Under the pieces are notes generated by a model. It saw only the letters and a program-made list of their open reading frames with translations, did not search any database and was not told the origin of the DNA. Of a stretch of DNA of 64,000 bases, positions 1,401 through 37,131 are shown one piece after another; position 1 is the stretch's first letter, and each line of letters starts with the position of its first letter. The stretch lies in NCBI GenBank assembly GCA_965220845.1, contig CBDCRA010000005.1, positions 896,016-960,015 on the forward strand, in the 5' to 3' direction. The stretch is from Candidatus Multivorans sp. GTDB lineage: Bacteria; Acidobacteriota; Thermoanaerobaculia; Multivoradales; Multivoraceae. The translations under genes were made by a program, and so were the position numbers.

Positions 1401-2222
1401 ATGAAGCGGAGTCTCACGGAACGGGCGGTGTTGACGCTGCTTGCGGCGTTGGTGTTCGCGGCGGTGCCCGCGGCGGCGCAGGACAGCGACTACAGGGCGC
1501 CGCGCACCCACGACGACAGGCCGGATCTCAACGGGATCTGGCAGGCGCTGGGCGCGGCCCACTGGGACATCGAACCGCACGCCGCGCGCCACGGCCCGGT
1601 GGTCGAGATGGCCGCCCTGGGCGCGATACCCGGCGGTCTCGGCATCGTCGAAGGGGGCAGGATCCCGTACCTGCCGGAGGCGCTGGAGAAGCGCGATCAG
1701 AACCGCGAGAACTGGCTGGCGCTCGATCCGGCGGTGAAGTGCTACATGCCGGGCATCCCGCGCGCCAACTACATGCCGTTCCCGTTCCAGATCGTCCAGA
1801 CGCCCGATCACGTGCTGATCGCCTACGAGTTCGCCAGCGCCAGCCGCGTGGTCTACATGAACCGGGAGGGCTTCGAGGCTCCGTTCGATACCTGGATGGG
1901 ACACTCGATCGGTCGCTGGGAAGGGGAGACACTGGTGGTCGACGTGACGAGTCAGGTGCCGGACACCTGGCTCGACTCGAGCGGCAACCACCACACGGAC
2001 GCGATCCACGTCGAGGAGCGCTGGACCGCGATGAGCCCGTATCACCTCCAGTACGAGGCGACGATCACCGACGAGAACGTCTACAGCCAGCCCTGGACGA
2101 TCAGCCTGCCGCTCTACCGCAGGGTCGATCCGAACATGCAGTTGCTCGAGTTCAAGTGCGTCGAGTTCGCCGAGGAGCTGATGTACGGCCACCTGCGCAA
2201 GGGCGCCGACTCGGGTCCCTGA
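1401..2222 (+). CDS. secreted hypothetical protein, paralog 1 of a three-member family in this window
   Basis: RBS GGAGG 12 nt upstream of ATG 1401 (GTG 1398 also possible). Sec signal peptide MKRSLTERAVLTLLAALVFAAVPAAAQ. Shares the RPDL.G, V.C/GxxC, LVQT.DH, SIGRWEG(D/E)TLVV.T and C-terminal Cys motifs with the ORFs at 2698..3798 and 35954..37024. Confidence 0.75.
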   Translation: MKRSLTERAVLTLLAALVFAAVPAAAQDSDYRAPRTHDDRPDLNGIWQALGAAHWDIEPHAARHGPVVEMAALGAIPGGLGIVEGGRIPYLPEALEKRDQNRENWLALDPAVKCYMPGIPRANYMPFPFQIVQTPDHVLIAYEFASASRVVYMNREGFEAPFDTWMGHSIGRWEGETLVVDVTSQVPDTWLDSSGNHHTDAIHVEERWTAMSPYHLQYEATITDENVYSQPWTISLPLYRRVDPNMQLLEFKCVEFAEELMYGHLRKGADSGP

Positions 2223-2251
2223 CGGACACCGCCAAGGAGAGGAGAACAGCG

Positions 2252-2677
2252 ATGAAGTTCCAGCGAATCGTCCTATTGGCAGCAGGCCTCGCCCTGGTGC
2301 TCGCCATTCCGCTCGCCGCTCATCACGCCTTTTCGGCCGAGTTCGACGCCGACAGGCCGCTCCAGCTTCGCGGCAAGGTGACGAAGATGGAGTGGATCAA
2401 TCCCCACGCCTGGATTCACCTGGAGGTGATGAACGACGATGGTTCGTCGACCGTCTGGATGGTTGAGGGCGGTACGCCGAACACGCTGGCCCGGCGCGGT
2501 TTCACGAAGAGGTCGCTCCTGCCGGGGACCGAGATCGTGGTCGACGGCTACCAGGCGAAGGACGGCTCGAACAAGGCGAACGGCCGCGATCTGACCTTCC
2601 CGGACGGCCGCAAGCTGTTCATGGGTTCATCCGGCACGGGCGCGCCGCGCGACGGCCGGGATCCGACCGAGCAGTAG
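2252..2677 (+). CDS. small secreted protein with an HH motif directly after the signal peptide (DUF6152-like, tentative)
   Basis: RBS AAGGAGAGGAGA upstream of ATG 2252. Signal peptide MKFQRIVLLAAGLALVLAIPLAA followed immediately by HHAFSAEFD ... WINPHAWIHLEV ... GYQAKDGS. Lies 30 nt downstream of paralog 1, so an operon is likely. Confidence 0.7.
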   Translation: MKFQRIVLLAAGLALVLAIPLAAHHAFSAEFDADRPLQLRGKVTKMEWINPHAWIHLEVMNDDGSSTVWMVEGGTPNTLARRGFTKRSLLPGTEIVVDGYQAKDGSNKANGRDLTFPDGRKLFMGSSGTGAPRDGRDPTEQ

Positions 2678-2697
2678 CGGACGCAGCGGCTCGGGAG

Positions 2698-3798
2698 CTA
2701 CTGGCCGCCGCTGGCCGCGCCGCGCGTCTCGTCCTCGAGCAGTCGCGCGCCCCTGAGGATGTTGCCCATGGCGTAGTTCCCCTCGTGGCAGGCGTACTCG
2801 TAGACCCTGGCCGGCGTGCCGGGCCACAGGTACTCGCCGCTCCAGGGCGCGCTCCACACGGTCGGGTCCTCGACCGTGAACGCGTAGAGCAAGTCGTCCG
2901 CGTTGACCCGTGTGAAGCGCTCGGTCACCTTGAGGTTCCGTGAGGCCAGGAAGAGCGCCGGGCGGTCGATGAAGTTCGTCGTCTCGACCACGAGTGTGTC
3001 GCCCTCCCACCAGCCGATCGAGTCGCCGAGCCAGCGGCGCTCGTCTGCTGGAATGTGCTCGCCGCCGATGCGGACGATGCGTGCGTCGTGCACCATCTCG
3101 ACCAGGATCATCAGGTGGTCCTCGGTCTGCACGAGCCGCTTTGCGTTGTTGTAGAGCACAGGCAGCATCGGCGGTCCGCCGGTGGAGCCGAAGCCGATCA
3201 GGCAACGTTCAGGCACGCCCAGGTTTTCGGGGCCATCGTACGGACCGGGGCCCTCGACCTCGAGCCACCAGGCCGTGCCGTCGTTGCCGCGCCGGCGACC
3301 GCGCCGCTCGGACATTCGCTGCAGCGTCTCGGCGGTCAGTTGCGGCATCCGGCCGTTCGGCGGATCGACGATGATCGAGGTCCGGAACCTGCCGTCGATC
3401 GAAAACACATCGCTGCCGCGATCGGTCCAGAAGTTGTTGTAGCCGCCGACGTTGCCGGCGCCGCTCGTTTCCCGGAACTCGTCACCCAGGCCGATGGGCG
3501 GCGCGCCGCCGGGCGGGGGCGGCTCGTCGATCCGGCGAACGGCGGCCCGGGACGCTACGCGCTGGCGCTCCCGTTCGACGATCTCTTCCGCCTGCTCGCG
3601 CGTCAGGTACAGGTTGTCGCCGAACTCCTGCGGGCGCTGCAGCGGGGTCAGCGTGGAGATGTCGTAGTCACCGGTCAGGTCGGGACGGCCGGAGGCCGTG
3701 CGCGGGATCGCGTCGTCGTCGGCGGCAGGCGCGGCTGGTACCGCGAGGAAGACAATGGCGGCGGCAGCGGCGACACCGACGTCAACTCTGCTCTGCAT
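2698..3798 (-). CDS. secreted hypothetical protein, paralog 2 of the three-member family
   Basis: RBS GAGGAG 7 nt upstream of ATG 3798. Signal peptide MQSRVDVGVAAAAAIVFLAVPAAPAADD. About 50 % identical to the 35954..37024 product (GRPDLTG.YDI.(S/T)LTP, FRTSI..PPNGRMP, NNxK(R/T)LVQT(E/D)D.LMI, GDSIG(W/R)WEGDTLVVETTNF, YEYACHEGNY). Confidence 0.8.
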   Translation of the reverse strand: MQSRVDVGVAAAAAIVFLAVPAAPAADDDAIPRTASGRPDLTGDYDISTLTPLQRPQEFGDNLYLTREQAEEIVERERQRVASRAAVRRIDEPPPPGGAPPIGLGDEFRETSGAGNVGGYNNFWTDRGSDVFSIDGRFRTSIIVDPPNGRMPQLTAETLQRMSERRGRRRGNDGTAWWLEVEGPGPYDGPENLGVPERCLIGFGSTGGPPMLPVLYNNAKRLVQTEDHLMILVEMVHDARIVRIGGEHIPADERRWLGDSIGWWEGDTLVVETTNFIDRPALFLASRNLKVTERFTRVNADDLLYAFTVEDPTVWSAPWSGEYLWPGTPARVYEYACHEGNYAMGNILRGARLLEDETRGAASGGQ

Positions 3799-3986
3799 GG
3801 CGGCTCTCCTCATCGATTGCTGGGAGTGCGACCGTTATACCAGCATGCCGCGGCTGAGGCAGGCGGAGAGAGTTGGCGCCGGGCCTTGTTGGTCGCCATG
3901 CACAGTGGGCACGAAACGCCCCGCCTATTCGCCGAGCGCCGGGAGCGACCCGGCGCCTGGTGTCGACTGTTGTATTCGGCAGGAGA

Positions 3987-4059
3987 CCCGGCTCGCAGGC
4001 CCACGGCGCGACGACAACCAACGGCGAGAAGCTACCGCGCGGTCGATTGTCCGTCAAAC
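3987..4059 (-). repeat. conserved ~75-nt intergenic element, copy 1 (second copy at 8229..8303)
   Basis: Blocks CCGGCTCGCAGGCCCAC ... GACAACCAACGG ... CTA.CGCGC ... GTCCGTCAAAC are shared with 8229..8303 in the same order and spacing. Lies in the gap between the Yip1-like gene stop (4110) and the paralog-2 start (3798). Confidence 0.5.
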
Positions 4060-4109
4060 GACTCGGCCAGGTGGCGGAGTGGGACCGGGCCGGACGCCGA
4101 CCCGTCCGG

Positions 4110-4808
4110 TCAGCGTAGGGACGCCGTCACCACCGCGAAGACCAGGCCCGCCAGACCCATCTCCAGCACCTTCCCTGCCGCCCAGTGGATCGCGGCAATG
4201 GCGAACCCGGCTGGTCGGGACACCCGGAACACCGAGGCGGCGCCCAGGCCGAGCAGGAGCAAGGACCAGACGAAGACGAGGGAGCCGATCAGCAGGTCGA
4301 GAATCGCGCCGGGCGCCATTTCGGCTACCTGCCCGATCACGTCGAGGCCGGAGTCCGGTCTCCTGTCGAGGACGCTCCGCTGCATCTCGACGAGGCCGTC
4401 GACCTGGGTGGTTCTCAGCAGCGAGCGGACGACCAGCCCCACGGCGCCGATGAGTCCTACATGGAGGGCCAGCGACAGGCACTGTTCGAACCGCGCCCGA
4501 CCCTTGAGGGCCGCGGCCAGGAGCCGGAGCACTGCCGCCTCGACCAGGAGCGCGAGCGGGATGGCTGCGATGACGAACGACAGCATCCCATAGGGAATCT
4601 CGAGGGGATCACCGATGCTGTCCATCGCATCGGCCAACAGCGACGTCGTCAACAGTACGGCCAGGACTGTCAGGGAGATGCCCAGAGTCAGGCCGGCAAC
4701 CCACGGGTGGTGCTCGCGGATGACGGCGAAGCTCTTCCGCGGAGCGGTGAAGATCCAGATCAGGGCCTTGAACCAGAGGTGGCGGCTCGCCTCCGGTTCT
4801 TCGCCCAT
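4110..4808 (-). CDS. Yip1-like (Yip1/DUF1282 family) polytopic membrane protein
   Basis: 232-aa ORF with 5-6 predicted TM helices. Hydrophobic profile and motifs resemble the Yip1 domain. Last gene of the putative peptide-export operon. Confidence 0.5.
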   Translation of the reverse strand: MGEEPEASRHLWFKALIWIFTAPRKSFAVIREHHPWVAGLTLGISLTVLAVLLTTSLLADAMDSIGDPLEIPYGMLSFVIAAIPLALLVEAAVLRLLAAALKGRARFEQCLSLALHVGLIGAVGLVVRSLLRTTQVDGLVEMQRSVLDRRPDSGLDVIGQVAEMAPGAILDLLIGSLVFVWSLLLLGLGAASVFRVSRPAGFAIAAIHWAAGKVLEMGLAGLVFAVVTASLR

Positions 4809-4853
4809 GAGGGGACTGTATCGACTCGTGATCGAACCGGAGACTCGGCCCGG

Positions 4854-5633
4854 TCAGCTCGGTGTGAGCCGGGCGAAGAGACCGGCCGCCACGGCGGTGA
4901 AGGCCGTCGTCGCTGCCCAGTAGATGGCGGCCAGCAGCCATGCCTTGCGCTGCGGAACCTCGAACACCGCGGCGGCGCCCAGCGCGAGCAGCGCGAGAAA
5001 CCAGATCGTGAACGGGTTGATGCTCGCGTAGACGGCATTGAGCGTCGCGTTGTCGCCGGCCAGCAGCAGGTCGAGTCCCATCGGCGCCCGGAGGTCCAGT
5101 TGCGATCGGATCGCGTCGGTGCCGCGGAGGTGAACGAGAAGGAAGTTGGCCCAGCTCTGAAGATGAGTGATTACGGCCAGGTGGATCATGAGGGCGAGGG
5201 ACTGGACGAATCGGGGACGTCCCTGGAGGGCGATCGCCAGGAGCCACACGAGGACGGTCTGAATCGCGAGTCCGACGGCCACGGAGAGGGGACCGGTGGC
5301 CATCGCCAGCCAACGCCCTGCCGCGGCTGCCTGTTCGAACTGCGCCATCATGGCGTCGACCTGTTCGGGGCTGCCCGGCATCCGTTCCGTCAGTTGGGCC
5401 CGCATGGCCTGGAGGCCCAGCGGCGCCGAGGCAAACGCCAGGGCGGCGTTCCCGGCCAGGACCAGGAGCAGCGTTGCGAGCCATGGGTTGCGGTTCCGGA
5501 TGATCTCGAAGCTCTGCCGCGGCGACCCGAAGAGCCCGAGCAGCGCCGTGAGCCAGGCGCTCCGGCCCCGCGAGCGTCCGCCTCCGGTCCCGGCGTTGCG
5601 TTCGTGGTTGGTGCTGCCTGGATGCTCGGTCAT
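4854..5633 (-). CDS. Yip1-like polytopic membrane protein (second copy)
   Basis: Start ATG 5633 (MTEHPGS...) with AGGAG 6 nt upstream. The start overlaps the stop of the upstream ABC ATPase gene (ATGA coupling). The long N-terminal extension in the track ORF is R-rich and probably not translated. Confidence 0.55.
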   Translation of the reverse strand: MTEHPGSTNHERNAGTGGGRSRGRSAWLTALLGLFGSPRQSFEIIRNRNPWLATLLLVLAGNAALAFASAPLGLQAMRAQLTERMPGSPEQVDAMMAQFEQAAAAGRWLAMATGPLSVAVGLAIQTVLVWLLAIALQGRPRFVQSLALMIHLAVITHLQSWANFLLVHLRGTDAIRSQLDLRAPMGLDLLLAGDNATLNAVYASINPFTIWFLALLALGAAAVFEVPQRKAWLLAAIYWAATTAFTAVAAGLFARLTPS

Positions 5634-6418
5634 GTCGTGCTCCTGTTGCCGATCCAGGAGAGGCGGGAGAACCTCTCGCGCCTGGAGATGCTGAGAATGA
5701 GGTTCTCGAGCCGCCCGGCGCCGTCTTCCCCTTCGGCGGCGGGCAATTCGCGGAACTCCTCCCGGGAGCACGACAGGAGGACCTTGCCGTCCCTGATGAC
5801 GGCGATGTGGGTCGATACGCGCTCGACGTAGTCGAGCATGTGGGATGTGAGGAAGATGGCTGCTCCCTGCTCGGCCATCTGCTGCAGGATCGACATGACG
5901 GTGCGGGCGCTCAGGGCGTCCATCCCCTCGAACGGCTCGTCGAGGAACAGGATTCGCGGTGCGTGAAGGGTCGCCGCGGCGAGGCGGATCTTCTTCCTCA
6001 TGCCGTGGGAGTAGGTCGTGATCGGCCGCTTGGCGGCGTCCTCGAGGTCGAAGACTGCGAGCGCCTCGTCGGTCCGCTGCCCGGCGTCCTCGCGGCCCAG
6101 GCCGTAGATGCGGGCATACGACAGCAGCAGTTCCTCGCCGGTCAGGCTCTCGAACATCACGCTGTGGTCGGGCACGATGCCGAGTTCCTGCTTGAGCTCG
6201 GTGTCGTCGATGTCCATCGGCTTGCCGAGCAGCCGCACCGTGCCCTTCGTCGGTTGCAAGACTCCGGTCAACATCGACCAGGTCGTCGTCTTGCCGGCCC
6301 CGTTGGGGCCGACGAAACCCAGAATCTGCCCCTCCCGGACGTCCAGATCGACGCCGTCGACGACGACGTTTCCTCCGTACGACCGGGTCAGGTTCTCTGC
6401 CTTGATTGCTTCTTCCAT
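5630..6418 (-). CDS. ABC transporter ATP-binding protein, ABC-2 (DrrA/CcmA-like) type
   Basis: Walker A GPNGAGKTT, signature YSHGMRKKIRLA, Walker B ILFLDEP. RBS AAGGA upstream of ATG 6418 (MEEAIKAENLTRSYGG...). Confidence 0.9.
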   Translation of the reverse strand: MEEAIKAENLTRSYGGNVVVDGVDLDVREGQILGFVGPNGAGKTTTWSMLTGVLQPTKGTVRLLGKPMDIDDTELKQELGIVPDHSVMFESLTGEELLLSYARIYGLGREDAGQRTDEALAVFDLEDAAKRPITTYSHGMRKKIRLAAATLHAPRILFLDEPFEGMDALSARTVMSILQQMAEQGAAIFLTSHMLDYVERVSTHIAVIRDGKVLLSCSREEFRELPAAEGEDGAGRLENLILSISRRERFSRLSWIGNRSTT

Positions 6419-6470
6419 CCGTGAGGTGTTCCTTGTGGTTGTAGGGGCAGAGGGGGTTGTGGGGCAGGGG

Positions 6471-8060
6471 TTAGTGGGAAGGGTCTCCGAGGAGGAGTTC
6501 ATGTGCCCGGGACTCGATCTCGCGTCGCTGCCGGATCGTGGAGGCGTGGCGGGCCAGGACCGTGCCGACGAGAGCGCCGCTTGTGAGAAAGCCGATCAGA
6601 AAGCCGTTCCCGGGTCGTTCCAGGAGCCTCGAGACAACGATCGTCAAGAAGAAGAGCGCCATAGCGGAAAGACCTGCCACGGAACTGGCCGCCAGGTTTT
6701 CCAGTTCAAACTCCGTGGCGCCGGCGGTCTTGCGCTTGGGCCAGTACAACCGGATCAGGCTGAACGCGGCATCTGCGAGCAGCACTGTGGCTGTCACCAG
6801 CACGGCGGCGGTCGCGGCGGGCCGCCACCCCGCCACGCCAAAGATGACGATGCCGCCGCTCGTCCCAAGAGTTGCAACCGGAACGGTCAGGAGGGCCGGC
6901 ACCCTGGTGGGCGTCCGGAAGATCCGGAACGAGCCCAGCGGCAGGGAAAGAGACTCACGCCAGACTTGGCAGCTCGGTGGCGGCTTCTCGGTCAGCACGC
7001 CGTTCACCATCAGGACGGTCAGAAGGGCGGCCGCCATCAGACCGAACAGGAGATCGATGGAGACCCACGTTGCGTAACCGAGGGCCATCGCGTAGGCCCA
7101 ACGAACGCCCTTTGCCCGGAGGCAGCATTCCACCTCGACGAGCGCCAGACAGGTGGCGGGAGACAAGTTGCCGCATCGACGCAGCAGTCCGGCCAGGGGC
7201 GTCACCGGCGAAGCCGTCCGGCGGTCGCCTCCCGGCTGCAACAGATAGCGCCGGAGCAGGAGTCCGTACTCGACGCCGGCGGTCGCCGCCAGAAGAACCA
7301 GCAGGATACCGAGCCGAAGGAGGTTCGGAAGGTGTTGTCCGGGCGAGTCGAGAATGGCCGCGAGAAGACCTGGAGGCGTGTAGCCGAGTGCGACGAGAAT
7401 CTTCGCCTTACGGACCGTGGCTTCAAGCGCCTCGAGGCTGGCCTCGCCGCCCAGGACGTTGATGACGATGCCGGCGGCCTGAATCAATGCTACGACGACG
7501 AGAAACACGCCCAGGACCCCGATCAGGCTCTCGACGAACCGGTCGATGGCCAGCGTGACGATCGCTGCCATCCGCCCGAGCAGTAGCACCGTGACTCCCA
7601 GAGCGCCGCTTATCAACAGGAAGTCGACCGGCCCTTCGGTCCGTGTCGCGAGCAGGAAGAGGGCCGCGGGTCCGAGCACCAGTAGCCAGTAGCCGACCAG
7701 GCTGAAAGCCAGGCGGAGCAGATAGAGATCCCGATAAGCGACGGGGAGCGGCAGGAACGGCTCGAGGTCCAGGAGCCAGTTCATCGGTAAGCGGAGGACC
7801 ACCTGGGCCAGGAGCCACAGCGCGGCGGCGGCGGAGATGCCGAGGTTCAGCAGGTTCCGGCGCAGCGCTTCGTCGTCGATACCGAAGAGCAGGGACAGCA
7901 GTGGCAGGCTCCCGGCAGTCGCCACGGCCAGGTAGAGCAGGGCGAGTCCGATCGCCACGGCCGGTGGCTGATCGGCTCGCCGCAATGCATCCGGAAGCGC
8001 GAGCCGGCCTAGCGTCAGCAGCCGGTCGGCCCGGCTTCCGTGCGCAGTCAACCTGGCCAT
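6471..8060 (-). CDS. large polytopic membrane protein, putative ABC-2-type permease (paralog B)
   Basis: 529 aa with more than 10 predicted TM helices. Shares LRR.LL, LY.LRLA..L.G.WLL.LG.AA, R.VE.LIG, FTP.GLLAA.LD.P and LS.LLRR motifs with the 8298..9956 product. Confidence 0.7.
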   Translation of the reverse strand: MARLTAHGSRADRLLTLGRLALPDALRRADQPPAVAIGLALLYLAVATAGSLPLLSLLFGIDDEALRRNLLNLGISAAAALWLLAQVVLRLPMNWLLDLEPFLPLPVAYRDLYLLRLAFSLVGYWLLVLGPAALFLLATRTEGPVDFLLISGALGVTVLLLGRMAAIVTLAIDRFVESLIGVLGVFLVVVALIQAAGIVINVLGGEASLEALEATVRKAKILVALGYTPPGLLAAILDSPGQHLPNLLRLGILLVLLAATAGVEYGLLLRRYLLQPGGDRRTASPVTPLAGLLRRCGNLSPATCLALVEVECCLRAKGVRWAYAMALGYATWVSIDLLFGLMAAALLTVLMVNGVLTEKPPPSCQVWRESLSLPLGSFRIFRTPTRVPALLTVPVATLGTSGGIVIFGVAGWRPAATAAVLVTATVLLADAAFSLIRLYWPKRKTAGATEFELENLAASSVAGLSAMALFFLTIVVSRLLERPGNGFLIGFLTSGALVGTVLARHASTIRQRREIESRAHELLLGDPSH

Positions 8061-8228
8061 GGAGTCCTTGGGGTCACTGTCCGGCTCTCGCGATGGGGAA
8101 GGCCGACACCAGGACTGGCGGCGGACCGCGCTGGCCGCCTTGCAGAGGAGCGACGAGACCCCCCACCGCTTCGCCTGACGAAGGGAGCGACCCTAGGCCC
8201 AGGGGCACTGGCCAAGCGTGGCAGGGGG

Positions 8229-8303
8229 TCCGGCTCGCAGGCCCACTGCGCCTCTGACAACCAACGGTCGGACGCTAGCGCGCCGGGATGGCGTCCGTCA
8301 AAC
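8229..8303 (-). repeat. conserved ~75-nt intergenic element, copy 2
   Basis: See 3987..4059. Overlaps the stop codon of permease paralog A and sits in the 237-nt gap before permease paralog B. Confidence 0.5.
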
Positions 8304-16389: not shown

Positions 16390-16661
16390 TCCGGTGGGGT
16401 ATCGACCCGTTGAGTCCACTGGCGCCGCCGGCTGGCAGTTCAGTTCCTCCCGGAGGACGGGGCGACGTGGTGGACGTCTCGGGAAGCTGAGGCGCGGCCG
16501 CTTTGAGGCATCTGGTGGCGACAGCCGGGGTGGACGGTCCCTGCCTCGCGGCGCCGTGAAAGCTCCGCGATTGTAGCCCAAAAACAGAGATGAGGCCAGA
16601 TGGCCTGTTACGATCGATCGCTCCGACGAGACACCGCCCTGGATCGAGCGAGGAGTCGACG

Positions 16662-17561
16662 ATGGCGCAGACCGCGACGGCGCAACTCGAAAGGCCGGCA
16701 GCCCGAAGAGAGGCGCGGCCGACACCGGAACGGCAGACCGAGACCCGGCAGCCGTTCGACCTCTCGAACGAGATGGCGGCGACCGTAGAGCAGCTCGGCA
16801 TGGCGGAGAACGTCCACGACATGCAGGAGCAGGGCTACACCATCCTGCGCGAGGTGGCGCCGCTGGAGGTCACGGAGCAGTTGCGGGAAGCCTGCCTGCG
16901 CCTGGCGGAGGAGACGGAAGGGCGGGCGAAGGGCCGTTCCGCCGCGCTTCTGCTCGGTCGCGACCCGATCTTCGAGGATGTCGTCCTCCGGCCGAAGATC
17001 CAGGCCCTCGCCGAGATCATGTGCGGGAAGGGTGCCCTGCTTTCCCAGTTGATCTGCAGCATCCGGCCGCTCGGGGCCGCCAAGCTGCCGTTGCACGCGG
17101 ACCAGAACTGGCTGCCGGCGCCGTTCCCGGTGCACAACCAGCTCCTGACCCTGTGCTGGGCGTGTGACGAGTTCACGGAGGCCGGCGGTTGCACCAAGGT
17201 GATCCCGGGGACTCACCGCCTGCGGCGTCACCCGAACGAGGAGGAAGTCGCCACCGAGCCGGGCGCGATTCCGACGGAATGTCCGGCCGGTTCGGTCGTC
17301 GCGTGGGACGGTTCGGTCTGGCACGGCAACTACCCGCGCGCGATAGCGGGAGAACGGGTCGTGCTGCACATCACGTTCTCCCGGCTGGCTCTGCGCCCGG
17401 TCGAGGACTACGGGCACCTCGACGAGGAGTGGTTGGAGGGCAAGCCCTATCCGCTCAGGGTCATGCTGGGCCGCGAGGATTTCCTGGGCAGCACGACGGT
17501 CGCTCGCGGCCACGCCGACTACACGCACCTGGTACGCACCTTCAACTGGGCGAAGACGTAG
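16662..17561 (+). CDS. phytanoyl-CoA dioxygenase (PhyH) family Fe(II)/2-oxoglutarate-dependent oxygenase
   Basis: RBS GAGGAG 6 nt upstream of ATG 16662. PhyH-like motifs (LHADQ ... WHGNY). Confidence 0.75.
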   Translation: MAQTATAQLERPAARREARPTPERQTETRQPFDLSNEMAATVEQLGMAENVHDMQEQGYTILREVAPLEVTEQLREACLRLAEETEGRAKGRSAALLLGRDPIFEDVVLRPKIQALAEIMCGKGALLSQLICSIRPLGAAKLPLHADQNWLPAPFPVHNQLLTLCWACDEFTEAGGCTKVIPGTHRLRRHPNEEEVATEPGAIPTECPAGSVVAWDGSVWHGNYPRAIAGERVVLHITFSRLALRPVEDYGHLDEEWLEGKPYPLRVMLGREDFLGSTTVARGHADYTHLVRTFNWAKT

Positions 17562-17572
17562 CTCCTGCGCCG

Positions 17573-19828
17573 CTACGGCTGGATCAGGTAGGTGAACTTC
17601 ACCGCGATCTGGCGGTGGGTGCTCTGGCGATAGCGAAGGTCCTCGGCCATCCAGTTCTCGTTGTAGACGACGAACAGGTCGGAGCCCGGTTTGTAGATCC
17701 AGTGCAGGCGGATGTTCGTTCCGAGGTCGCCGGAGTGGTCGTTGTACTGAATGATCGTGTTCAGCCGCAGGTTCGGGGTGAACGTGAAGTTCACGAGCTG
17801 GCTGTAGAGGCCGACGTCGAAGGCGCCCTGGGGCAGCTCGACGTCGTTGTAGACCCAGCGGGTCTCCGTCTGCAGGTTCTTCGAGAGGCGCAGGGTGAAC
17901 GAAACGCGGCCCGAGTTCTGCGTGCCGTTGTAGAAGTCGCCGACGCTGATGCGCCCGCGCAGGCCGAAGAGACGGCTCTGGTTCGTGAACGAGGCGGCTT
18001 CGACGGTGGCGAACTCGTAGCGCCCTGGCGGGATCACGACACCGGGTGACACCTCGAAGGGCTCGACCAGGTTCTCCGTTTCGTGGACGTATCCCATCCG
18101 CCAGCGGTCCTCGGTCGTCATCCGCATGCCGATGGGGGAGATCTCGATCCGCTGGGTTTCCAGCTCGCCGCCGTCGAGCGTCTCGTAGTAGTCGACCAGA
18201 ACCTCGGTGAACCAGGAGCGAACGAACCCGCGTTCGATCCGCGGCAGCCACTGGAACTGCGGGTTCAGGTGACGGACGTTCCGCCGCAGAAGAAAGCCAG
18301 CCTTCGGGTCGTAGTCCTTCTCGATCTCCTGGGCGTCGAGGAAGACGGTGAGGGATCGGCCCTGGTAGTCGAAGTTGAGTCCGTAGGCGGACTCTCCAGC
18401 GTCGGATGATGCGGCGTCGTCGGAACTGGCGGACGGCTCCTCGCTGATGCCGCTGCTGCTCCAGAACCCGCCGAAGATCAGCTTCGACGTCGGCTTGTAG
18501 ACGAAGTCGACCCCGGCGACGCGGTTCGCGAGTTCTCCGTCCGGCGCGGCTTCCGTGAGCATGGCGCCGACGGACGATCGCTCGCCGACGTTCCGCTTCA
18601 GCCGTGCGACGGTGAATGCGTTCGCGGGCAGACCGTTGTCGCCCCGCTCGAGGCCGGCCGTCGCGACGCGGAGCACGCCGATGTCCCAGCCGCCCATTCG
18701 CCCGGTGAGGCGGGCGCCCCAGTCGATCGGCACCTGCCGTCCGGCGTCCAGACCGACGCGCCTCGAGAAGAACGCCTTGAGCACCGGCGGCTCGTAGAAC
18801 CGGCGGTGGGGCGGGCCGAAGTCGAAGATGCCCGCGTTCTCAAGGAAGAAATCGCGCTTCTCCGGAAAGTAGAGCGAGAACCGGGTGAGGTTCGTCTGCA
18901 GTTCGTCGACCTCGACCTCGGCGAAGTCCGTGTTGTAGGTCAGGTCGAGCGCCAGGGAACGGGTCACCCCCCACTTGAGGTCGAGACCGTAGTCGCCGTC
19001 CGTGGCCGGGTCGAGATCGAGGCGGGGATCTTCGCTGACGTCGCCGATCACGTACGGCTTGATCTGAAGCTGTGCCGACTGGCTGAGTCCGGTCAACCCG
19101 GTCAGTTCTCCGGCCATGGACACCCGATGCACGGGCTGGACCTCGGAGCCGACCTGTCCGAGCACGCCGACTTCGCGCGGCAGGCCGGACCAGTGGATCA
19201 TCTCGCGCTTGTGGGCGATGTACCGCTGGACGTTGAACCCCCAGGCGGGAGCGGCCGGATCGAAACGGAGCGTCGAGATCGGGATCGCGATCTCGGCCGT
19301 CCAGCCCTGCGCGGTCTTGCGGGACGCTACGGACCAGATGCCGTCCCACTCCAGGTTCAGGTCGCGCCCTTCGTCGGTGACGAGAGTGTCGGTCCGGGCG
19401 CCGTTCAGGTTCGTCTCGAAGGCGTACGCGTTGCGCCGGTCGTGGAAGGTGTCGAGCAGCAGCATGATCGAATCGTCCTGGTAGATGCGGCTGTCGCGCT
19501 CCATCTCCTTGGCGATGATCGCGTCGGGGTTCGCGTCGAACGCGGTGATCCCGAAGTAGATCGTGCCGTCCGTGAACACGACACGGACCTCCGTCTGCTC
19601 GGTCGCCGGCACGCCGTCGAGCGGCTCGTGCTGCATGAAGTCCGTGCCGACCTCGGATGCCTGCCAGGCGCGGTCGCTGAGGTCGCCGTCGACATTCGGG
19701 CCCTGGTCGACCCGGGTGGCTGCCATCGTCGGGCGCTCGGCGACGGCTTCGGACCGCTCCTGGCTGCCCACGGGGACGCCCGCGAGAAGACCCAGTAGTC
19801 CCACGGTCGCGGGCGCCCTCCGTTTCAC
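17573..19828 (-). CDS. DUF5916 domain protein with N-terminal CBM9-like/DOMON-like domain, secreted
   Basis: Signal peptide, then VDGDLSDRAWQ ... FMQHEPLDG ... VVFTDGTIYFGITAFD, typical of the CBM9-like plus DUF5916 architecture. Confidence 0.7.
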   Translation of the reverse strand: MKRRAPATVGLLGLLAGVPVGSQERSEAVAERPTMAATRVDQGPNVDGDLSDRAWQASEVGTDFMQHEPLDGVPATEQTEVRVVFTDGTIYFGITAFDANPDAIIAKEMERDSRIYQDDSIMLLLDTFHDRRNAYAFETNLNGARTDTLVTDEGRDLNLEWDGIWSVASRKTAQGWTAEIAIPISTLRFDPAAPAWGFNVQRYIAHKREMIHWSGLPREVGVLGQVGSEVQPVHRVSMAGELTGLTGLSQSAQLQIKPYVIGDVSEDPRLDLDPATDGDYGLDLKWGVTRSLALDLTYNTDFAEVEVDELQTNLTRFSLYFPEKRDFFLENAGIFDFGPPHRRFYEPPVLKAFFSRRVGLDAGRQVPIDWGARLTGRMGGWDIGVLRVATAGLERGDNGLPANAFTVARLKRNVGERSSVGAMLTEAAPDGELANRVAGVDFVYKPTSKLIFGGFWSSSGISEEPSASSDDAASSDAGESAYGLNFDYQGRSLTVFLDAQEIEKDYDPKAGFLLRRNVRHLNPQFQWLPRIERGFVRSWFTEVLVDYYETLDGGELETQRIEISPIGMRMTTEDRWRMGYVHETENLVEPFEVSPGVVIPPGRYEFATVEAASFTNQSRLFGLRGRISVGDFYNGTQNSGRVSFTLRLSKNLQTETRWVYNDVELPQGAFDVGLYSQLVNFTFTPNLRLNTIIQYNDHSGDLGTNIRLHWIYKPGSDLFVVYNENWMAEDLRYRQSTHRQIAVKFTYLIQP

Positions 19829-19893
19829 GGGGCGGAGGCTAGCAGCAGCGTTCTTCGGACGACCCGTCTCGCGCTGCGGTAACGTGCGCGGCC

Positions 19894-21198
19894 ATGCCCG
19901 ACGAACCTCGCCCCGACCTGCTGCAGTTGGCCGAGCGGGCTTGGCGCGGAGAACTGGATCTCCGGTTCGAGCACCACCCGGTCCACCGCTACTACCCGGG
20001 CTCGTGCCGCATCGCCGACGACCTGCTCGCTTTCAAGGGCATCGCCGGCTTCTATGTCGTCGACACGGGAGACGGCCTGGTGATGCTGGACGCCGGCCAT
20101 CTGCTCGACGTGAAGCGCTGTTTCGAGGGTGTGCGTCGCGTTTGGCCCGAAACTCCGGTCGTCGCCGCGATCTACTCGCACCACCACGTGGATCACGTGT
20201 TCTCGGTGACCGCATTCGACACCGAGGCGGAGGAGCGGGGCTGGCCGCGGCCGACGGTCTATGCCCACGAACGGGTGCCGGCTCACTTCGACCGCTACCG
20301 GGCGACCCTGGGCTGGAACACGGCGATCAACCGCCGCCAGTTCGCGATCGACGCGCCGCACTACCGCTGGCCCGACAGTTACCGGTATCCGGATGTCCTC
20401 TACCGGCGGAGCATGACCTTCCGGCGCGGCGAGCTCACCTTCGAACTCACCCACGGCCGGGGCGAGACGGACGACATCACCTGGACCTGGATACCCGAGC
20501 GTCGCATCCTGCATACGGGCGACCTGTTCATCTGGGCGGTGCCGAACGCCGGCAACCCGCAGAAGGTCCAGCGATACGTCGGCGACTGGGCCGACAGCCT
20601 GGAGCGGATGGCGCCGCTTGGCGCCGAGATCCTCCTCCCGGGGCACGGCTTGCCGATCCTGGGCGCCGGCCGGGTGCGGCGCGCTCTGGACGGCACGGCG
20701 CGCTACATGCGGTCGATCGAAGAGCAGAGCGTCGCGGCGATGAACCGGGGCCTGAGCCTGGACCAGGTGGTCGAGGCGGTGACGCCTCCGGCCGACCTCG
20801 CGGACGAGCCCTATCTGCAGCCGGTGTACGACGATCCGAGCTTCCTCGTGCGGATGGTCTGGCGGCGATACGGCGGCTGGTGGGACGGCGAGTTCGACAA
20901 CATCGTGCCGGCCACGAAGAGGGAGCAGGCCGAAGCCTGGGTCGAACTTGCCGGCGGCGTGGAGCAGGTGATCGAGGCGGCGCGGGCCGAGTCCGCCGCC
21001 GGCCGCCACGCGGTGGCGTGCCACTTGATCGAGGCTGCCCGGCACGCGGCGCCGGGCAGCGCGGAGGTTCACCAGGCGCGCGCCTCGGTCTATCGCGCGA
21101 ATGCCGAGGCGCAGCCTTCGTCGATGGCGCGGAACATCCTGAACCACGCGGCGCTGGCCAGCGACCAGGGCCGGCGGGATCTCGCCTCGGATGAGTGA
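19894..21198 (+). CDS. MBL-fold alkyl/aryl-sulfatase-like hydrolase (SdsA1-like MBL + dimerisation domains, no SCP2 tail)
   Basis: HxHxDH motif (YSHHHVDHVF). Alkyl-sulfatase dimerisation-like segment (YLQPVYDDPSFLVRMVWRRYGGWWDG). Confidence 0.75.
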   Translation: MPDEPRPDLLQLAERAWRGELDLRFEHHPVHRYYPGSCRIADDLLAFKGIAGFYVVDTGDGLVMLDAGHLLDVKRCFEGVRRVWPETPVVAAIYSHHHVDHVFSVTAFDTEAEERGWPRPTVYAHERVPAHFDRYRATLGWNTAINRRQFAIDAPHYRWPDSYRYPDVLYRRSMTFRRGELTFELTHGRGETDDITWTWIPERRILHTGDLFIWAVPNAGNPQKVQRYVGDWADSLERMAPLGAEILLPGHGLPILGAGRVRRALDGTARYMRSIEEQSVAAMNRGLSLDQVVEAVTPPADLADEPYLQPVYDDPSFLVRMVWRRYGGWWDGEFDNIVPATKREQAEAWVELAGGVEQVIEAARAESAAGRHAVACHLIEAARHAAPGSAEVHQARASVYRANAEAQPSSMARNILNHAALASDQGRRDLASDE

Positions 21199-21844: not shown

Positions 21845-21850
21845 TAGCAG

Positions 21851-24064
21851 CTAGGGCTCGATCGTCTTCAGGATGAAGCGGGCCATCGTCTCGCGCAAGT
21901 GGAGCGAGAGGTCCGGGTCCGAGATGCCGTGGCGTGACTTCGGGTAGAGCATCATCTCGAAGGGCTTGCCGGCCTTCTGGAGCTTCCAGGCCAGCTGCAG
22001 GGTGTTCTGCATGTGGACGTTGTCGTCCATCGTGCCGTGGATGATCAGCAGGTCGCCGTGGAGGTCCCCGGCGGACTCGAGCACGGAGGTCCGCTCGTAG
22101 CCGTCCGGGTTGTCGTCCGGAGTCGACATGTAGCGCTCGGTGTAGATCGAGTCGTAGGCGCGCCAGTCGACGACGCTGCCGCCGGCGATACCGGCGCGGA
22201 AACGGTCGGAACGGGTGAGCGCGAAGAGCGTCATGTAGCCGCCGAAGCTCCAGCCGTCGAGGCCGATCCGCTCCTTGTCGACCCACGGCTTCGCGCCGAG
22301 CCAGTCGACGGCTTCGACCAGATCGATGAGCTCCTGCTCGCCGAAATTCCGGTACACCGGCCAGGTCGACTCGACGCCCTTGCCCGAGGCGATCCGGTTG
22401 TCGACGACGAGAACGACGATTCCCTGCTGCGCCAGGTACTGGAACCACATGCCGCGGGACCCCTGCCAGCCGTCGCGGACCTGCTGGGCGTGGGGCCCGC
22501 CGTAGACGTGAACCCAGGCCGGGTAGACCCGGTCGGGATCGAAGCCGTGCGGCCGGATCAGCATTGCCGCCAGGTCGACGCCGTCGCTGGTCTCGATGGT
22601 CAGGAGCTCCGGTTTCGAGATGTCGAAGCGCTCCATGTCGGGTACGTCGCCGCCGCCGAGGTCGCGGACAGTCTCGCCCCCGGCGCTTCGCAGCGTCATC
22701 GTCGTCGGTGTGTGAAGGTCGTTCGACGTGGCGACCCAGTGGCTGACGGGGCCCTCGTCCGGGAAGTTGCCACGGTGACTGCCGGTCGCCTGGGTGAGCA
22801 GGGCTGGGCTCGCTCCCTCGAGCGCCACGCGCAGCACGTCGGCGCCGAGCGCTGAACGGTACGTTCCCGAGACGTAGGCTGCGCCCGCGTCCTCGTCGAC
22901 CGCAAGCAGGGAGCGGACTTCCCAGCGGCCGTCGGTGAGCGGCCGGACCAGCTTGCCCTCCTGGTCGTAGCGGTACAGATGCTGGAACCCGGTCCGTTCG
23001 CTGAACCAAAGGAAACCGCCCTCCTTCAGGAAGTGGGGCGGGCCGAGCACGTTGACCCAGGCGTGGGACTCCTCGCGCAGCACGCGCTCCGATTCGCCGG
23101 TGTCGGGGTCGGCGCGATGCAGGTCGAGGAAGGTCTGCCGGCGATCCTGGACCTGGTACCAGACGTCGCCGTCAGGGGAAAAGGCGACGTTCACGATCAG
23201 GATCTCCGAGTGTCCGTACAGGCCCGGATCGATCCACGTGATGCCCCCGCCGCTGGCCTTCGCGACTCCCAGCCGGACGCGCGGGTTCGGGTCTCCGGCC
23301 TTGGGGTAAGGGTAGACCTCGAGCGGCGGCCGGAAGGGGACGTGATCGACGACGGTGAATCGGGGCACGTCGCGCTCGTCGCTCTGCAGGAACGCGATGC
23401 CGCGGCTGTCCGGACTCCACCAATGGGCCTGGTAGTTGCCGCGGCCGTAGATCTCCTCCTGGTAGACCCAGTCGAGCTTGCCGTTGAGCGTGTTCTCGCC
23501 GCCGCCCGTGGTCAGGCGAAGCTCGTTGCCTCCCAGGTCCACGACGTACAGGTCCGCGTCGCGGACGAAGGCGACACGGCGGCCGTCCGGCGAAAAGCGG
23601 GCGAGTTCCTCGGTCTCCGGACCCCGGGTGAGCCGGGTGAGCGTCTCGTCGTCGAAACTCCAGACGGACAGGTCCGAGGCGAGGTCGAGCAACAGGCGGT
23701 CCGCGGCCGGCGACAGCCGAAGAGCCCCGGGCCGCGCCCGTGACGCCGCGTCCTCAGCGCTCAGGTCCAGTTGCTCCCGGAGCGCGGTTGCCAGGGGCCC
23801 CGGGTCGTAGAACGGGCGGCTATCGCCCGACGCCGCGTCCACGGCCGTCCAGGACCAGCCATCCTCGCCGTCCTTCCCCGAGAGGTACTCCTCGCCGCCG
23901 GGCAGCCATCGGAGCCGCGGCAGCTCGGGCGAGAAGTCGAGCGCCTCCGGCCCGTAGATGTGATGGATCTCCAGGGGCTCCTTCTGCGCGGCTGCAGGGT
24001 GGAGGGCGAGAAGGACGAGGAGAACGAACGTGCCTGGGGCCCGACGGCGGAAGATGTTGAGCAT
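21851..24064 (-). CDS. S9 family peptidase, dipeptidyl-peptidase IV-like (DPP-IV N-terminal propeller + prolyl oligopeptidase catalytic domain)
   Basis: Signal peptide. Catalytic GWSFGG. Characteristic S9B C-terminal domain (HGTMDDNVHMQN). Confidence 0.85.
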   Translation of the reverse strand: MLNIFRRRAPGTFVLLVLLALHPAAAQKEPLEIHHIYGPEALDFSPELPRLRWLPGGEEYLSGKDGEDGWSWTAVDAASGDSRPFYDPGPLATALREQLDLSAEDAASRARPGALRLSPAADRLLLDLASDLSVWSFDDETLTRLTRGPETEELARFSPDGRRVAFVRDADLYVVDLGGNELRLTTGGGENTLNGKLDWVYQEEIYGRGNYQAHWWSPDSRGIAFLQSDERDVPRFTVVDHVPFRPPLEVYPYPKAGDPNPRVRLGVAKASGGGITWIDPGLYGHSEILIVNVAFSPDGDVWYQVQDRRQTFLDLHRADPDTGESERVLREESHAWVNVLGPPHFLKEGGFLWFSERTGFQHLYRYDQEGKLVRPLTDGRWEVRSLLAVDEDAGAAYVSGTYRSALGADVLRVALEGASPALLTQATGSHRGNFPDEGPVSHWVATSNDLHTPTTMTLRSAGGETVRDLGGGDVPDMERFDISKPELLTIETSDGVDLAAMLIRPHGFDPDRVYPAWVHVYGGPHAQQVRDGWQGSRGMWFQYLAQQGIVVLVVDNRIASGKGVESTWPVYRNFGEQELIDLVEAVDWLGAKPWVDKERIGLDGWSFGGYMTLFALTRSDRFRAGIAGGSVVDWRAYDSIYTERYMSTPDDNPDGYERTSVLESAGDLHGDLLIIHGTMDDNVHMQNTLQLAWKLQKAGKPFEMMLYPKSRHGISDPDLSLHLRETMARFILKTIEP

Positions 24065-24133
24065 CCCCGAACAGTAACGGAGCCGGTCCTCGGGATCCGA
24101 GGCATGACGGTTCTCCCGGTGGCGGTTCCGCCT

Positions 24134-24967: not shown

Positions 24968-25145
24968 GGGAGATGACCTCCGGGGTTGTCGATTACGTAC
25001 TAGCAGTACGGCGGACGGCTGTGACCGGTTTCGTGTGCCAGTTTCGTGCCAGCCGCCCGCCCGGTGACGCGCACGGACTGGTTCACGAGCGGCGTCAACT
25101 CGCGCCACCCGCGTCGTGGGCGGGTGATACGGTCAGCCGTTCCCA

Positions 25146-26717: not shown

Positions 26718-26749
26718 GTCCGCGTAGTATCCGCCGCCGGAGGAACGCC

Positions 26750-27340: not shown

Positions 27341-27343
27341 CGC

Positions 27344-28786: not shown

Positions 28787-28813
28787 CCGGTGCGTGTGCG
28801 GCTGCTGGCGGCC

Positions 28814-30841: not shown

Positions 30842-30844
30842 TCG

Positions 30845-32011: not shown

Positions 32012-32040
32012 CTCTCGGGAGCGGAACTCTTCGCGAGAGT

Positions 32041-33426: not shown

Positions 33427-33492
33427 GGCCGGGTGACCTAGTTTGCAACACGCGTAGGATCGACCGTCTTCCCGCGGACTCGTGTCGACCCG

Positions 33493-34992: not shown

Positions 34993-35022
34993 GGGCTCAA
35001 GACGGATGAAGGAGAAGGCTCA

Positions 35023-35880
35023 ATGACGCAGACAGAGAAGAAGCTCGACGGCAAGGTCGTCCTGGTCACCGGAGCGAGCCGCGGTATCGGCAAGGCGATC
35101 GCCGAGCTGTTCGCCGAGCACGGCGCTCGGGTTGCCTGCACGGCACGCACCCTGTCCGAGGGCGGCCACTACCTGGGCGGGTCGCTGGAGGAGACGATCG
35201 AGGAGATCCGGGCGGCCGGCGGCGACGCCACCGCGTTCGCCTGCGACGTCTCCGAGTACCCCAACTGCGAGCGGTTGGTGACCGAGGTGCGCGACGCACT
35301 GGGGCCGGTCGAGGTGCTGATCAACAACGCCGCCCTGACCTACTTCATCCCGGTCGTCGATTTCCCGATCAACAAGTGGCACCGCTCGACCGCGGTCAAC
35401 TTCCACGCGCCGTTCTACCTCTCGAAGCTCGTGCTGCCCGAGATGATCGAGCGGGGTGCCGGCAGCATCGTCAACGTCTCCTCGGGCGCGGCGATCGGCC
35501 CAGGACGCGGTCCCTACAAGGGCCCGCAGTTCGCGGGCGGCTCGCTCTACGGCGCCGAGAAGGCGGCGCTCGAGCGCTTCACCCAGGGCCTGGCCTCCGA
35601 GGTCTACGAGCACGGCGTCTCGGTGACCTGCTACAGCCCGTCCCAGATCGTCCCCACGCCGGGCGTCGTCCACCACCGGCTGATGGAGGGCCGCGACCCG
35701 AACGAGGCGGAAACCGTCGAGATCATGGCCCAGGCGGCCCTGCTGCTCGCCACCGAGCCGCTCGACCGGGTCACCGGTCGGGTGACTTACAGCCAGGCGA
35801 TCCTGGAGGAGTTCGGCTGGATCGAGAAGGGACGCGGACTCGGCACGGAGCGCCAGGGCTCCGGCTACAGCATGATCTAG
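35023..35880 (+). CDS. SDR family short-chain dehydrogenase/reductase
   Basis: TGASRGIG cofactor motif, NNAA, catalytic Y..K (YGAEK). 31 nt downstream of matB. Confidence 0.85.
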   Translation: MTQTEKKLDGKVVLVTGASRGIGKAIAELFAEHGARVACTARTLSEGGHYLGGSLEETIEEIRAAGGDATAFACDVSEYPNCERLVTEVRDALGPVEVLINNAALTYFIPVVDFPINKWHRSTAVNFHAPFYLSKLVLPEMIERGAGSIVNVSSGAAIGPGRGPYKGPQFAGGSLYGAEKAALERFTQGLASEVYEHGVSVTCYSPSQIVPTPGVVHHRLMEGRDPNEAETVEIMAQAALLLATEPLDRVTGRVTYSQAILEEFGWIEKGRGLGTERQGSGYSMI

Positions 35881-35953
35881 ACCACTGCGTGCGCCGGCGT
35901 CCCCGCCGGCACCAGCGCGATGCCGCGAAGCGGCGAGCCCGAGCCTTCTCCGC

Positions 35954-37024
35954 CTACTCGCCGCCCTTCACGGGCTTGCCGGCCGCGATCCACTCCTTCT
36001 CGAGCTGGCGCGCTCCCCTGAGCTGGCCCAGCATCGAGTAGTTGCCCTCGTGGCAGGCGTACTCGTAGTTGTACTGGTCGGTCCTTGGCCACGGCATCTC
36101 GCCGCCGTAGGCCGCGGTGTACTCCTCGTCCTCGACCTCGAACTGGTAGAGCAGCGACTTGCCGTCGATCGGGCTGAAGCGCTCGGTCACCTTCATCGCG
36201 CCGCGCGGCACGCCGGCCGACTCTCGACCGTGCAGCATCTGGGGCGCCGCCTCGCGACGGAAGTTCGTCGTCTCGACGACCAGGGTGTCGCCTTCCCAGC
36301 GGCCGATCGAGTCGCCGGAGTAGGACTGGTACGGCGCCGGCGAATGCTCCGCGTCGATCCGCACGACCCGCGTCCAGTGCATCCACTCGATGTGGATCAT
36401 CAGGTAGTCGTCCGTCTGCACCAGGGTCTTCAGGTTGTTGTAGGAGATCGTACGGATCGGGATCGAAGCGCCGGGCTGGTAGATGCAGCGCACGCCGAGG
36501 ACCATCGTCTCCGGGCTGTCGAAGGGGGTGTCGCCCGACTCCAGCCACCAGGCCGTGCCGTCGTCGTTCATCCAGATGAACCTGGGCAGGGCGCCACGGT
36601 GCTTCTGGGCTTCCTCCTTCATCGCCGGCATCCGGCCGTTCGGCGGAGTCGTCAGGATCGACGTCCGGTACTTGCCGTCGATCTTGAACATCGTGTGACC
36701 GGGATCGAACCAGGCGTAGTTGTAACTCTGCCGGTCGATGAACGCACCTTTCTCCGGCGGCGGCCGATCCGGGCTGCTGGCCGCGTCGCCGTCCAGGACG
36801 CGCTGGCGCTGGTTGGCTTCGACCTCGGCCGCCTCCTCCGGGCTGAGGACGAGTTCCTCGCCGCGCTCTGGCCGGCGCTCGAAGGGCGTCAGCGAGCGGA
36901 TGTCGTAGCGGCCGGTGAAGTCGGGCTTGCCGCCCGGGGTCCGCGGGATGTCGTCGGCGGCCGCGAGGGCGGTGCCGGTGCCCGACACGAGCAGCAGAGA
37001 AAGCAGCGCGAGGGTCTTCCGCAT
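35954..37024 (-). CDS. secreted hypothetical protein, paralog 3 of the three-member family
   Basis: RBS AAGGAG 8 nt upstream of ATG 37024. Signal MRKTLALLSLLLVSGTGTALAAADD. See 2698..3798. Confidence 0.8.
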   Translation of the reverse strand: MRKTLALLSLLLVSGTGTALAAADDIPRTPGGKPDFTGRYDIRSLTPFERRPERGEELVLSPEEAAEVEANQRQRVLDGDAASSPDRPPPEKGAFIDRQSYNYAWFDPGHTMFKIDGKYRTSILTTPPNGRMPAMKEEAQKHRGALPRFIWMNDDGTAWWLESGDTPFDSPETMVLGVRCIYQPGASIPIRTISYNNLKTLVQTDDYLMIHIEWMHWTRVVRIDAEHSPAPYQSYSGDSIGRWEGDTLVVETTNFRREAAPQMLHGRESAGVPRGAMKVTERFSPIDGKSLLYQFEVEDEEYTAAYGGEMPWPRTDQYNYEYACHEGNYSMLGQLRGARQLEKEWIAAGKPVKGGE

Positions 37025-37080
37025 CTCGAATCTCCTTGTTCCAAGGGTTCTCCAGAGCCTAACGCCTCGGCTCTCCGCTG

Positions 37081-37105: not shown

Positions 37106-37131
37106 GCCGCCGCAGGCGGCCTCTGGTGGCC

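Follow-up and report, generated by a model that had tools for sequence, protein, structure and literature searches.

What do three related exported proteins do that are encoded near one another in a single bacterial genome, and why does one of them stand beside a small protein which is predicted to begin, once exported, with two histidines? The question is raised by a stretch of 64,000 nucleotides from the acidobacterium Candidatus Multivorans sp. (contig CBDCRA010000005.1, positions 896,016 to 960,015), and this whole stretch is called the window here. A first-pass annotation, made from the sequence alone, had described the three genes, named par1, par2 and par3 in this text, as one paralogous family. 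FAM is the label used here for the unnamed exported barrel family holding par1, par2 and par3, and the small protein belongs to the Pfam family DUF6152. It was found that par1, the DUF6152 gene and par2 are a conserved three-gene functional unit, for which a periplasmic metal or redox role is tentatively proposed.

The three-gene unit and its family

The first gene of the unit is par1 (1401-2222, plus strand), which encodes a short-form FAM member of 273 aa and whose ATG is preceded by the ribosome-binding site GGAGGAGG at 1384-1391. The stop of par1 is followed, after a gap of 29 nt, by the DUF6152 gene (2252-2677, plus strand; 141 aa), with the ribosome-binding site AAGGAGAGGAG at 2234-2244 upstream of it; its product has a predicted OB-fold and a predicted mature N-terminus at His24-His25. 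Convergent on this gene and separated from it by 20 nt is par2 (2698-3798, minus strand), a long-form FAM member of 366 aa. A mechanical list of open reading frames (ORFs) offers an alternative start of par2 at 3813; the ATG at 3798 is the better start, because AGGAGA lies 6 nt upstream of it and because a homologue 95% identical to par2 (P0002) begins at the equivalent position. The second long-form paralogue, par3 (35954-37024, minus strand; 356 aa), lies in a separate context and has AAGGAGA 6 nt upstream of its start. Each FAM gene was assigned from its ORF together with its ribosome-binding site. The coordinates given by the first-pass annotation were correct, while the minus strand of par2 and par3 had gone unmentioned in it. 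A promoter and terminator scan of 1100-4200 gave no signal above the shuffled expectation.

Gene neighbourhoods were compared for about 160 loci, 80 of the short form taken from species genomes and 80 of the long form taken from metagenomes; neighbouring ORFs were clustered with strict coverage and E-value limits and the cluster representatives were annotated. Across these 160 related loci the short form and DUF6152, often together with a par2-like long form, are a conserved module. DUF6152 lies directly 3′ of FAM in 16 of the 17 Thermoanaerobaculia-like loci, which include the Multivorans clade, in 21 of 22 from Vicinamibacteria and in 11 of 21 from Bryobacterales (16 within 8 kb); only 2 of the 20 loci from Gammaproteobacteria (Pseudohongiella, OM182 and other Pseudomonadales) have it, and it adjoins about 18 of the 80 long-form metagenome loci. 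The layout of the window, with the short form, then DUF6152 and a convergent par2-like long form, is that of the Multivorans clade and recurs in loci L007-L018 of this clade, L028 being different. L007 matches with 100% identity and lies on chromosome OZ242040.1 of Candidatus Multivorans sp. (Thermoanaerobaculia-related Acidobacteriota).

Further membrane and cytochrome genes join the module in other lineages. Genes for DUF6644/CopD-like proteins are present in 18 of the Vicinamibacteria loci, 11 of the Bryobacterales loci and 13 of the gammaproteobacterial loci (42 of these 63), and in none of the Thermoanaerobaculia-like ones; for cytochrome c′-like proteins the counts are 19, 9, 0 and, in Thermoanaerobaculia-like loci, 1. 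The Vicinamibacteria layout runs from a cytochrome c′-like protein (C-terminal CxxCH, PF01322 match sub-threshold) through two DUF6644 membrane proteins to the short form and DUF6152. In Bryobacterales the operon has the short form, a par2-like long form and DUF6152, usually followed by two DUF6644 genes and a cytochrome. DUF6644 proteins match DUF2214 and CopD weakly, and their first transmembrane segment has a His that hardly ever varies.

The gammaproteobacterial short form is divergent from a CopD-like/DUF6644 pair, SURF1, a cytochrome-c-fused protein and a 315-aa unknown protein. A CopC-domain gene (PF04234, E=1.5e-9) stands a few kb away; CopC was counted in 10 of these 20 loci and in none of the three acidobacterial groups. 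The cytochrome-c-fused protein (about 480 aa) has HH.../H.H motifs and a sub-threshold match to Cu2_monoox_C (E=0.005), and such fused Cu2_monoox_C-like proteins occur in 9 gammaproteobacterial loci and one Vicinamibacteria locus, with none in Bryobacterales or the Thermoanaerobaculia-like group. As an observation apart, the CopC gene closes this run in loci L051, L053, L061, L064, L066, L068, L070, L072 and L080, and the run of CopD-like, SURF1, fused-cytochrome and CopC genes has the look of a separate copper/haem system, so far uncharacterised.

The likeness of the three FAM proteins goes well beyond what chance would give. The alignment of par2 with par3 has 47% identity over 346 aa (E=1e-88), and that of par1 with par3 has 33% over 141 aa of the C-terminal core (E=6e-14), so the paralogy proposed at first reading was borne out. 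The motifs listed with that proposal are shared too, with small deviations, as par3 has KPDFTG in place of RPDLxG and par1 has IVQTPD. The Sec signals and good ribosome-binding sites noted there agree with the upstream boxes given above and with the N-termini of all four proteins, which as read from the sequence have a basic n-region, a hydrophobic core and an Ala-rich c-region of the Sec type. A pair of cysteines (C204 and C342 in par2, C114 and C253 in par1) is invariant in about 160 aligned family members and probably forms a disulfide in the exported protein. No fourth FAM copy was found in the window by tblastn.

par1, par2 and par3 are firmly one exported (periplasmic) paralogous family that has not been catalogued. 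No family in Pfam-A matched them above threshold and none in NCBIfam; a Pfam-A scan of 113 relatives one by one brought out no recurrent family; a sequence search of the PDB gave nothing meaningful with either par2 alone or the 113-sequence profile. The opinion that no characterised family could be assigned has therefore stood, and no confident profile assignment to a characterised enzyme family was obtained for par1-3. An exact-sequence look-up of par2 and par3 returned no database record. Among the matches listed, all 240 homologues have an empty Pfam annotation, and those named by their source are called "hypothetical protein". One candidate, Cu-oxidase_3 for par3, was rejected as sub-threshold (E=0.038, 14.5 bits against a cut-off of 21) and is seen in 2 of the 113 members.

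The family is very large. With a three-sequence profile, at least 19,759 cluster representatives at 50% identity were found at E<=1e-3 and 8,915 at E<=1e-10; par1 and par2 each have at least 8,000 homologues, and a scan of one genome per species gave at least 597 matching stretches of the short form. Among protein families that have no entry in Pfam, NCBIfam or the PDB, FAM is one of the larger; soil and marine Acidobacteriota commonly have it, and so do sponge symbionts. Several of the closest relatives of L007 are in bins RHO, COS and SB, which we take from their names to be sponge-metagenome bins. Two forms can be told apart. The short form (par1) has about 270-300 aa, and orthologues 61-100% identical to par1 were found in at least 80 species genomes of Acidobacteriota and Gammaproteobacteria. 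The long form (par2, par3) has about 350-370 aa, with insertions in the N-terminal half. The short form is 60-75% identical between the two phyla, which argues for a constrained and probably important function. Triplication in the window had been considered notable; since related loci carry 2-4 FAM copies within 16 kb and the family is so large, several copies are the norm, and the three window copies are ordinary members of a widespread family.

The DUF6152 partner and a possible copper site

The small protein had been called DUF6152-like, and it is a clear member of that family (PF19649), scoring 115 bits where the cut-off is 27 (E=1.8e-33) and aligning to profile positions 4-95 of 98; the family is without described function, structure or literature. 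No paper on DUF6152 or DUF6644 was found in the literature searched, and the same was true of searches for a histidine brace with an OB-fold, for the CHEGNY motif and for "Candidatus Multivorans". Close DUF6152 relatives are 71-99% identical. The residues H24, H25, F27, E30, F31, D32, N50-P51-H52, W54 and H56 are invariant among them, A23 is nearly so, and the C-terminal tail GSSGTGAP.DG.D is wholly invariant. This tail is predicted to be disordered and is possibly a partner-binding segment.

Cleavage of the signal peptide is predicted at the junction Ala23/His24-His25. This junction does not vary in 47 close homologues, and divergent DUF6152 copies of related loci, about 30% identical, retain both Ala/His-His and an (N/D)PH turn. 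Because the junction survives even in these divergent copies, mature DUF6152 very probably starts with His-His, as had been claimed at first reading. An N-terminal histidine serves as copper ligand in CopC, YcnI, LPMO and PmoF, and the defining features of N-terminal-histidine metal sites are used here as given in the same source (PMC8424229). The predicted His-His start supports the idea of such a site in DUF6152, and the invariant N-terminal His-His together with the conserved His of the (N/D)PH turn would be its signature, with copper as the most likely metal.

The AlphaFold model of DUF6152 is an OB-type barrel (pLDDT 78.6), whose best PDB matches are SSB, PriB and the anticodon-binding domain of LysRS (E about 2e-3). 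The signal peptide was included in the model and residues 20-25 have pLDDT below 50; His25 and His52 of the (N/D)PH turn are conserved and are candidate second brace ligands, to be read with that low confidence of residues 20-25 in mind. The earlier wording "His-brace-like" fits in that a conserved His stands at the predicted mature start; it does not fit the model, which is an OB-type barrel and not a sandwich, and the term is kept here as a working hypothesis. CusF, a periplasmic Cu(I)/Ag(I) chaperone, is a small five-strand OB-like barrel that binds metal via His, Met and Trp. DUF6152 is likewise predicted to be a small periplasmic OB-like barrel, but the His/Met/Met/Trp site of CusF is internal and not at the N-terminus. 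No sequence similarity between the two was detected, and CusF was not among the top Foldseek matches.

The nearest functional comparison is with CopC/CopD and YcnI/YcnJ (PMC8424229, PMC12362106). Like CopC and YcnI, DUF6152 is small and exported and has a conserved His as its first predicted mature residue, and its relatives are linked genetically to small polytopic CopD-like membrane proteins (DUF6644). In the gammaproteobacterial loci, moreover, where DUF6152 is mostly lacking, CopC occurs nearby in 10 of 20. There are differences as well: DUF6152 is modelled as an OB-type barrel and not as a cupredoxin or Ig-like sandwich; it always occurs with one or two FAM barrel proteins, to which nothing in the Cop and Ycn systems corresponds; and, unlike CopC/CopD, it stands in a window without any CopD-like gene, its copper binding being a prediction.

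The reading that we favour, at a probability of about 0.4, is that the module is periplasmic and is centred on a redox-active metal, probably copper, or on a redox function. DUF6152, cleaved to expose His-His, would carry the N-terminal-histidine metal site; the module would connect the inner membrane with a periplasmic target, by binding or relaying the metal or by passing electrons; and the short form may be the metal-accepting or catalytic partner. Six positions of the short form, His60, His168, His198, His264, Met116 and Met166, vary little or not at all in either phylum. The reading is drawn from these conserved His and Met positions and from the invariant His-His of DUF6152, along with the recurrent CopD-like and cytochrome neighbours and the complementary distribution of CopC and DUF6152. 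A more specific version is offered as a doubtful possibility: DUF6152 might be a histidine-brace copper protein of a new kind, with an OB-fold as its scaffold. Its partners would be the calycin-like FAM proteins, joined in most lineages by CopD-like DUF6644 membrane proteins and c-type cytochromes, and together they would form an unrecognised periplasmic system for copper-dependent redox chemistry or copper delivery, widespread in Acidobacteriota and in marine Pseudomonadales (Gammaproteobacteria). If this were true, a new scaffold would be added to the small histidine-brace set of LPMO, pMMO, CopC and YcnI, and a new periplasmic metal or redox module would be defined.

Several points weigh against a metal or redox role. 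The functional reading rests wholly on sequence motifs and gene neighbourhood, and the matches to CopD and Cu2_monoox_C are below Pfam thresholds. No DUF6644/CopD-like or cytochrome c′-like gene was found by tblastn in the 64 kb of the window, which has no CopC gene either, and no Ig-like or cupredoxin-like sandwich was among the top Foldseek matches of the DUF6152 model. The synteny of the gammaproteobacterial loci may partly reflect shared ancestry. The conserved histidines of the long form (H242, H253 and H343, plus the methionine M240) are at positions different from those of the short form, so there is no family-wide His metal site. The contexts of the long forms are many, unrelated and often lipid-catabolic, and fusions join long forms to a hydrolase and to redox enzymes alike; with these contexts and fusions a ligand-binding or enzyme role fits at least as well.

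The FAM barrel and other readings of its function

The structure of par2 was modelled with AlphaFold2 from a 113-sequence alignment (pLDDT 86.4, pTM 0.84). The model has the signal peptide, a short strand at PDL.G.Y, a helix at 72-91 and a disordered loop at 100-120, and then, in the C-terminal part, eight strands between 224 and 332 and a long helix at 344-369. The conserved core of FAM is an N-terminal "PRT..G.PDL.G.W" segment, an antiparallel barrel of eight strands and a C-terminal helix. Residues common to the short and long forms (par2 numbering) are P44, D45, G48, G154, P157, K/R203, C204, Q229, E239, R245, W261, G263, G267, W269, L274, V275, E298, R299, Y310, D316, W324, E339, C342 and E344. 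The Q, E, R, E-R, Y and D of the barrel region are invariant, and these conserved polar residues suggest a specific binding or catalytic site.

The structure check advised in the first-pass annotation, run on the par2 model, gave weak matches only: in the PDB, Foldseek returned fatty-acid-binding proteins (FABP/CRABP) over about 115 columns, at E about 5e-3 and a TM-score of about 0.45. As modelled, FAM is like the fatty-acid-binding proteins and the calycin superfamily in having an antiparallel β-barrel of similar size, and these are its sole PDB fold matches. It is unlike them in the low TM-score, in an identity of 10-18%, in the place of its G-x-W-like motif "SIG(R/W)WEG", which lies in strand 4-5 and not in strand 1, and in being an exported protein of about 270-370 aa with a C-terminal helix and a cysteine pair.

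The barrel brings in the strongest of the other explanations, which is possible though on the unlikely side. In the manner of FABP or of YceI/BcnA lipocalins, FAM proteins may carry ligands that are hydrophobic or have a carboxylate (fatty acids, isoprenoids, quinones) through the periplasm, shuttling them as substrates between the outer membrane and catabolic or redox enzymes, with DUF6152 and the cytochromes acting on the bound ligand. FABPs hold the carboxylate of their ligand by an Arg/Arg/Tyr clamp, and the conserved Arg245, Arg299 and Tyr310 in the FAM barrel recall it. The contexts of the long forms would suit such carriers: they adjoin SDR and TonB-dependent receptor genes, and acyl-CoA ligase, acyl-CoA dehydrogenase and CoA-transferase genes are near others. 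In three FAM representatives the mature domain is fused, without an internal signal peptide, to the C-terminus of another protein, namely a PQQ-dependent dehydrogenase, a DUF3089 α/β-hydrolase and a terpene-cyclase-like protein with a CxxCH motif. The earlier proposal to look for PQQ enzymes and TonB receptors as neighbours turned up single cases only, the one PQQ-dehydrogenase fusion, which looks genuine, and one adjacent TonB-dependent receptor; adjacencies of long forms to SDR, DUF3604 and similar genes are not conserved.

A precedent for such carriers is the pair of BcnA, a YceI-family lipocalin, and LcoA, a membrane cytochrome b561, which are a redox system for peroxidation defence in the envelope (PMC9113575); lipid-radical detoxification of that kind is one example of what DUF6152 and the cytochromes might do. 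What the two systems share is the genetic linkage of an exported barrel, calycin-like in the case of FAM as modelled, to redox partners and to a small membrane protein that has a conserved His in a transmembrane segment. No sequence relationship connects them, however; FAM has a long extra N-terminal region and the invariant Cys pair, and its membrane partner is DUF6644, which is missing from the window, and not cytochrome b561. Besides the weakness of the Foldseek matches, the lipocalin, FABP and YceI profiles gave no match at E<=1 in the 113 FAM members. It would be unusual for a generic lipid carrier to have so many invariant charged residues and a short form so alike in two phyla, and carriage of lipids leaves the invariant His-His of DUF6152 unexplained. 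If the barrels do carry lipids, this would bear on how hydrophobic substrates cross the periplasm.

Somewhat less probable again is that FAM is a new class of enzyme (hydrolase, lyase, isomerase or oxygenase), with the invariant Glu/Arg/Tyr/Asp network as active site, joined in the long forms by the C-H-E motif. The paralogues would then stand for diversification of substrates and DUF6152 would be an accessory subunit of one subfamily. The strict invariance of the polar residues across the short and long subfamilies, the very large expansion of paralogues and the diverse, often catabolic contexts, with some members fused to other periplasmic enzymes, are consistent with this. Yet no likeness to any enzyme family or structure was detected, the His of the CHE motif is missing from the short form, and the cysteine pair is more simply taken as the disulfide of an exported protein. 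The earlier suggestion that FAM is DUF1329, or a similar outer-membrane lipoprotein-carrier family, is very improbable, for nothing beyond export and the lipobox of some homologues (e.g. "LLAAGC" in P0043) speaks for it and it is refuted at the level of sequence profiles, with no DUF1329 match at E<=1 for par1-3 or any of the 113 aligned relatives.

Under the metal or redox reading as under that of lipid carriage, the conserved three-gene module is a concrete and testable entry point to FAM. The family and the module are unstudied and lie far from characterised systems in both sequence and fold.

par3 and the remainder of the window

par3 is a diverged stand-alone long-form paralogue without a conserved partner, and its standing as a separate long-form paralogue is firm. 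Directly upstream of it is a gene for a DUF3604-domain protein (37132-39906, minus strand; 924 aa; PF12228, E=1.8e-19). par3 lies 105 nt downstream of this gene on the same strand, and the two are possibly co-transcribed. The intergenic stretch 37024-37132 (minus strand), which separates the stop of the DUF3604 gene from the start of par3, has a GC-rich inverted repeat, GCCGGCC-AGAA-GGCCGGC, without a T-run; the repeat may serve in attenuation or in processing, or it may have arisen by chance. On the other side an SDR gene (35023-35880) is convergent with par3, which also faces an acyl-CoA ligase gene. Conserved links of par3 to both neighbours were ruled out, as DUF3604 occurs in 1 of about 160 related loci and SDR homologues occur in 5 of about 160 with no fixed position.

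Divergent from par1 is a gene at 1-1293 (minus strand), of which 431 aa lie within the window against about 630 aa in relatives, and which has no Pfam match. It is conserved in the Multivorans clade only, and there a DUF5916 gene stands just beyond it, outside the window; a separate DUF5916/CBM9 gene lies within the window at 17573-20032 (minus strand).

A bacteriocin-like export cluster occupies 8298-12475 (minus strand), together with 4110-8192. It has a C39-peptidase-like ORF at 11236-12024, the homologue of which in L001 matches PF03412, and several small Gly-rich or hydrophobic ORFs, of which the one at 10806-11201 ends in a double-glycine-leader-like "...LPEADLAAVTGG/NAWMV..." peptide. 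The cluster also has a polytopic membrane protein (8298-9956, 552 aa), an unknown protein (6471-8192, 573 aa), an ABC ATPase (5630-6502) and two Yip1-domain membrane proteins (4110-4808 and 4854-5771). Ordinary annotations were obtained for a large SNF2-family helicase with an open frame of 1364 aa (12775-16869, minus strand) and for a DPP-IV/S9 peptidase (21851-24133, minus strand). At 54127-55935 (minus strand) a 602-aa protein combines a planctomycete-type cytochrome c domain (PSCyt1, E=1.8e-9) with a WD40 β-propeller.

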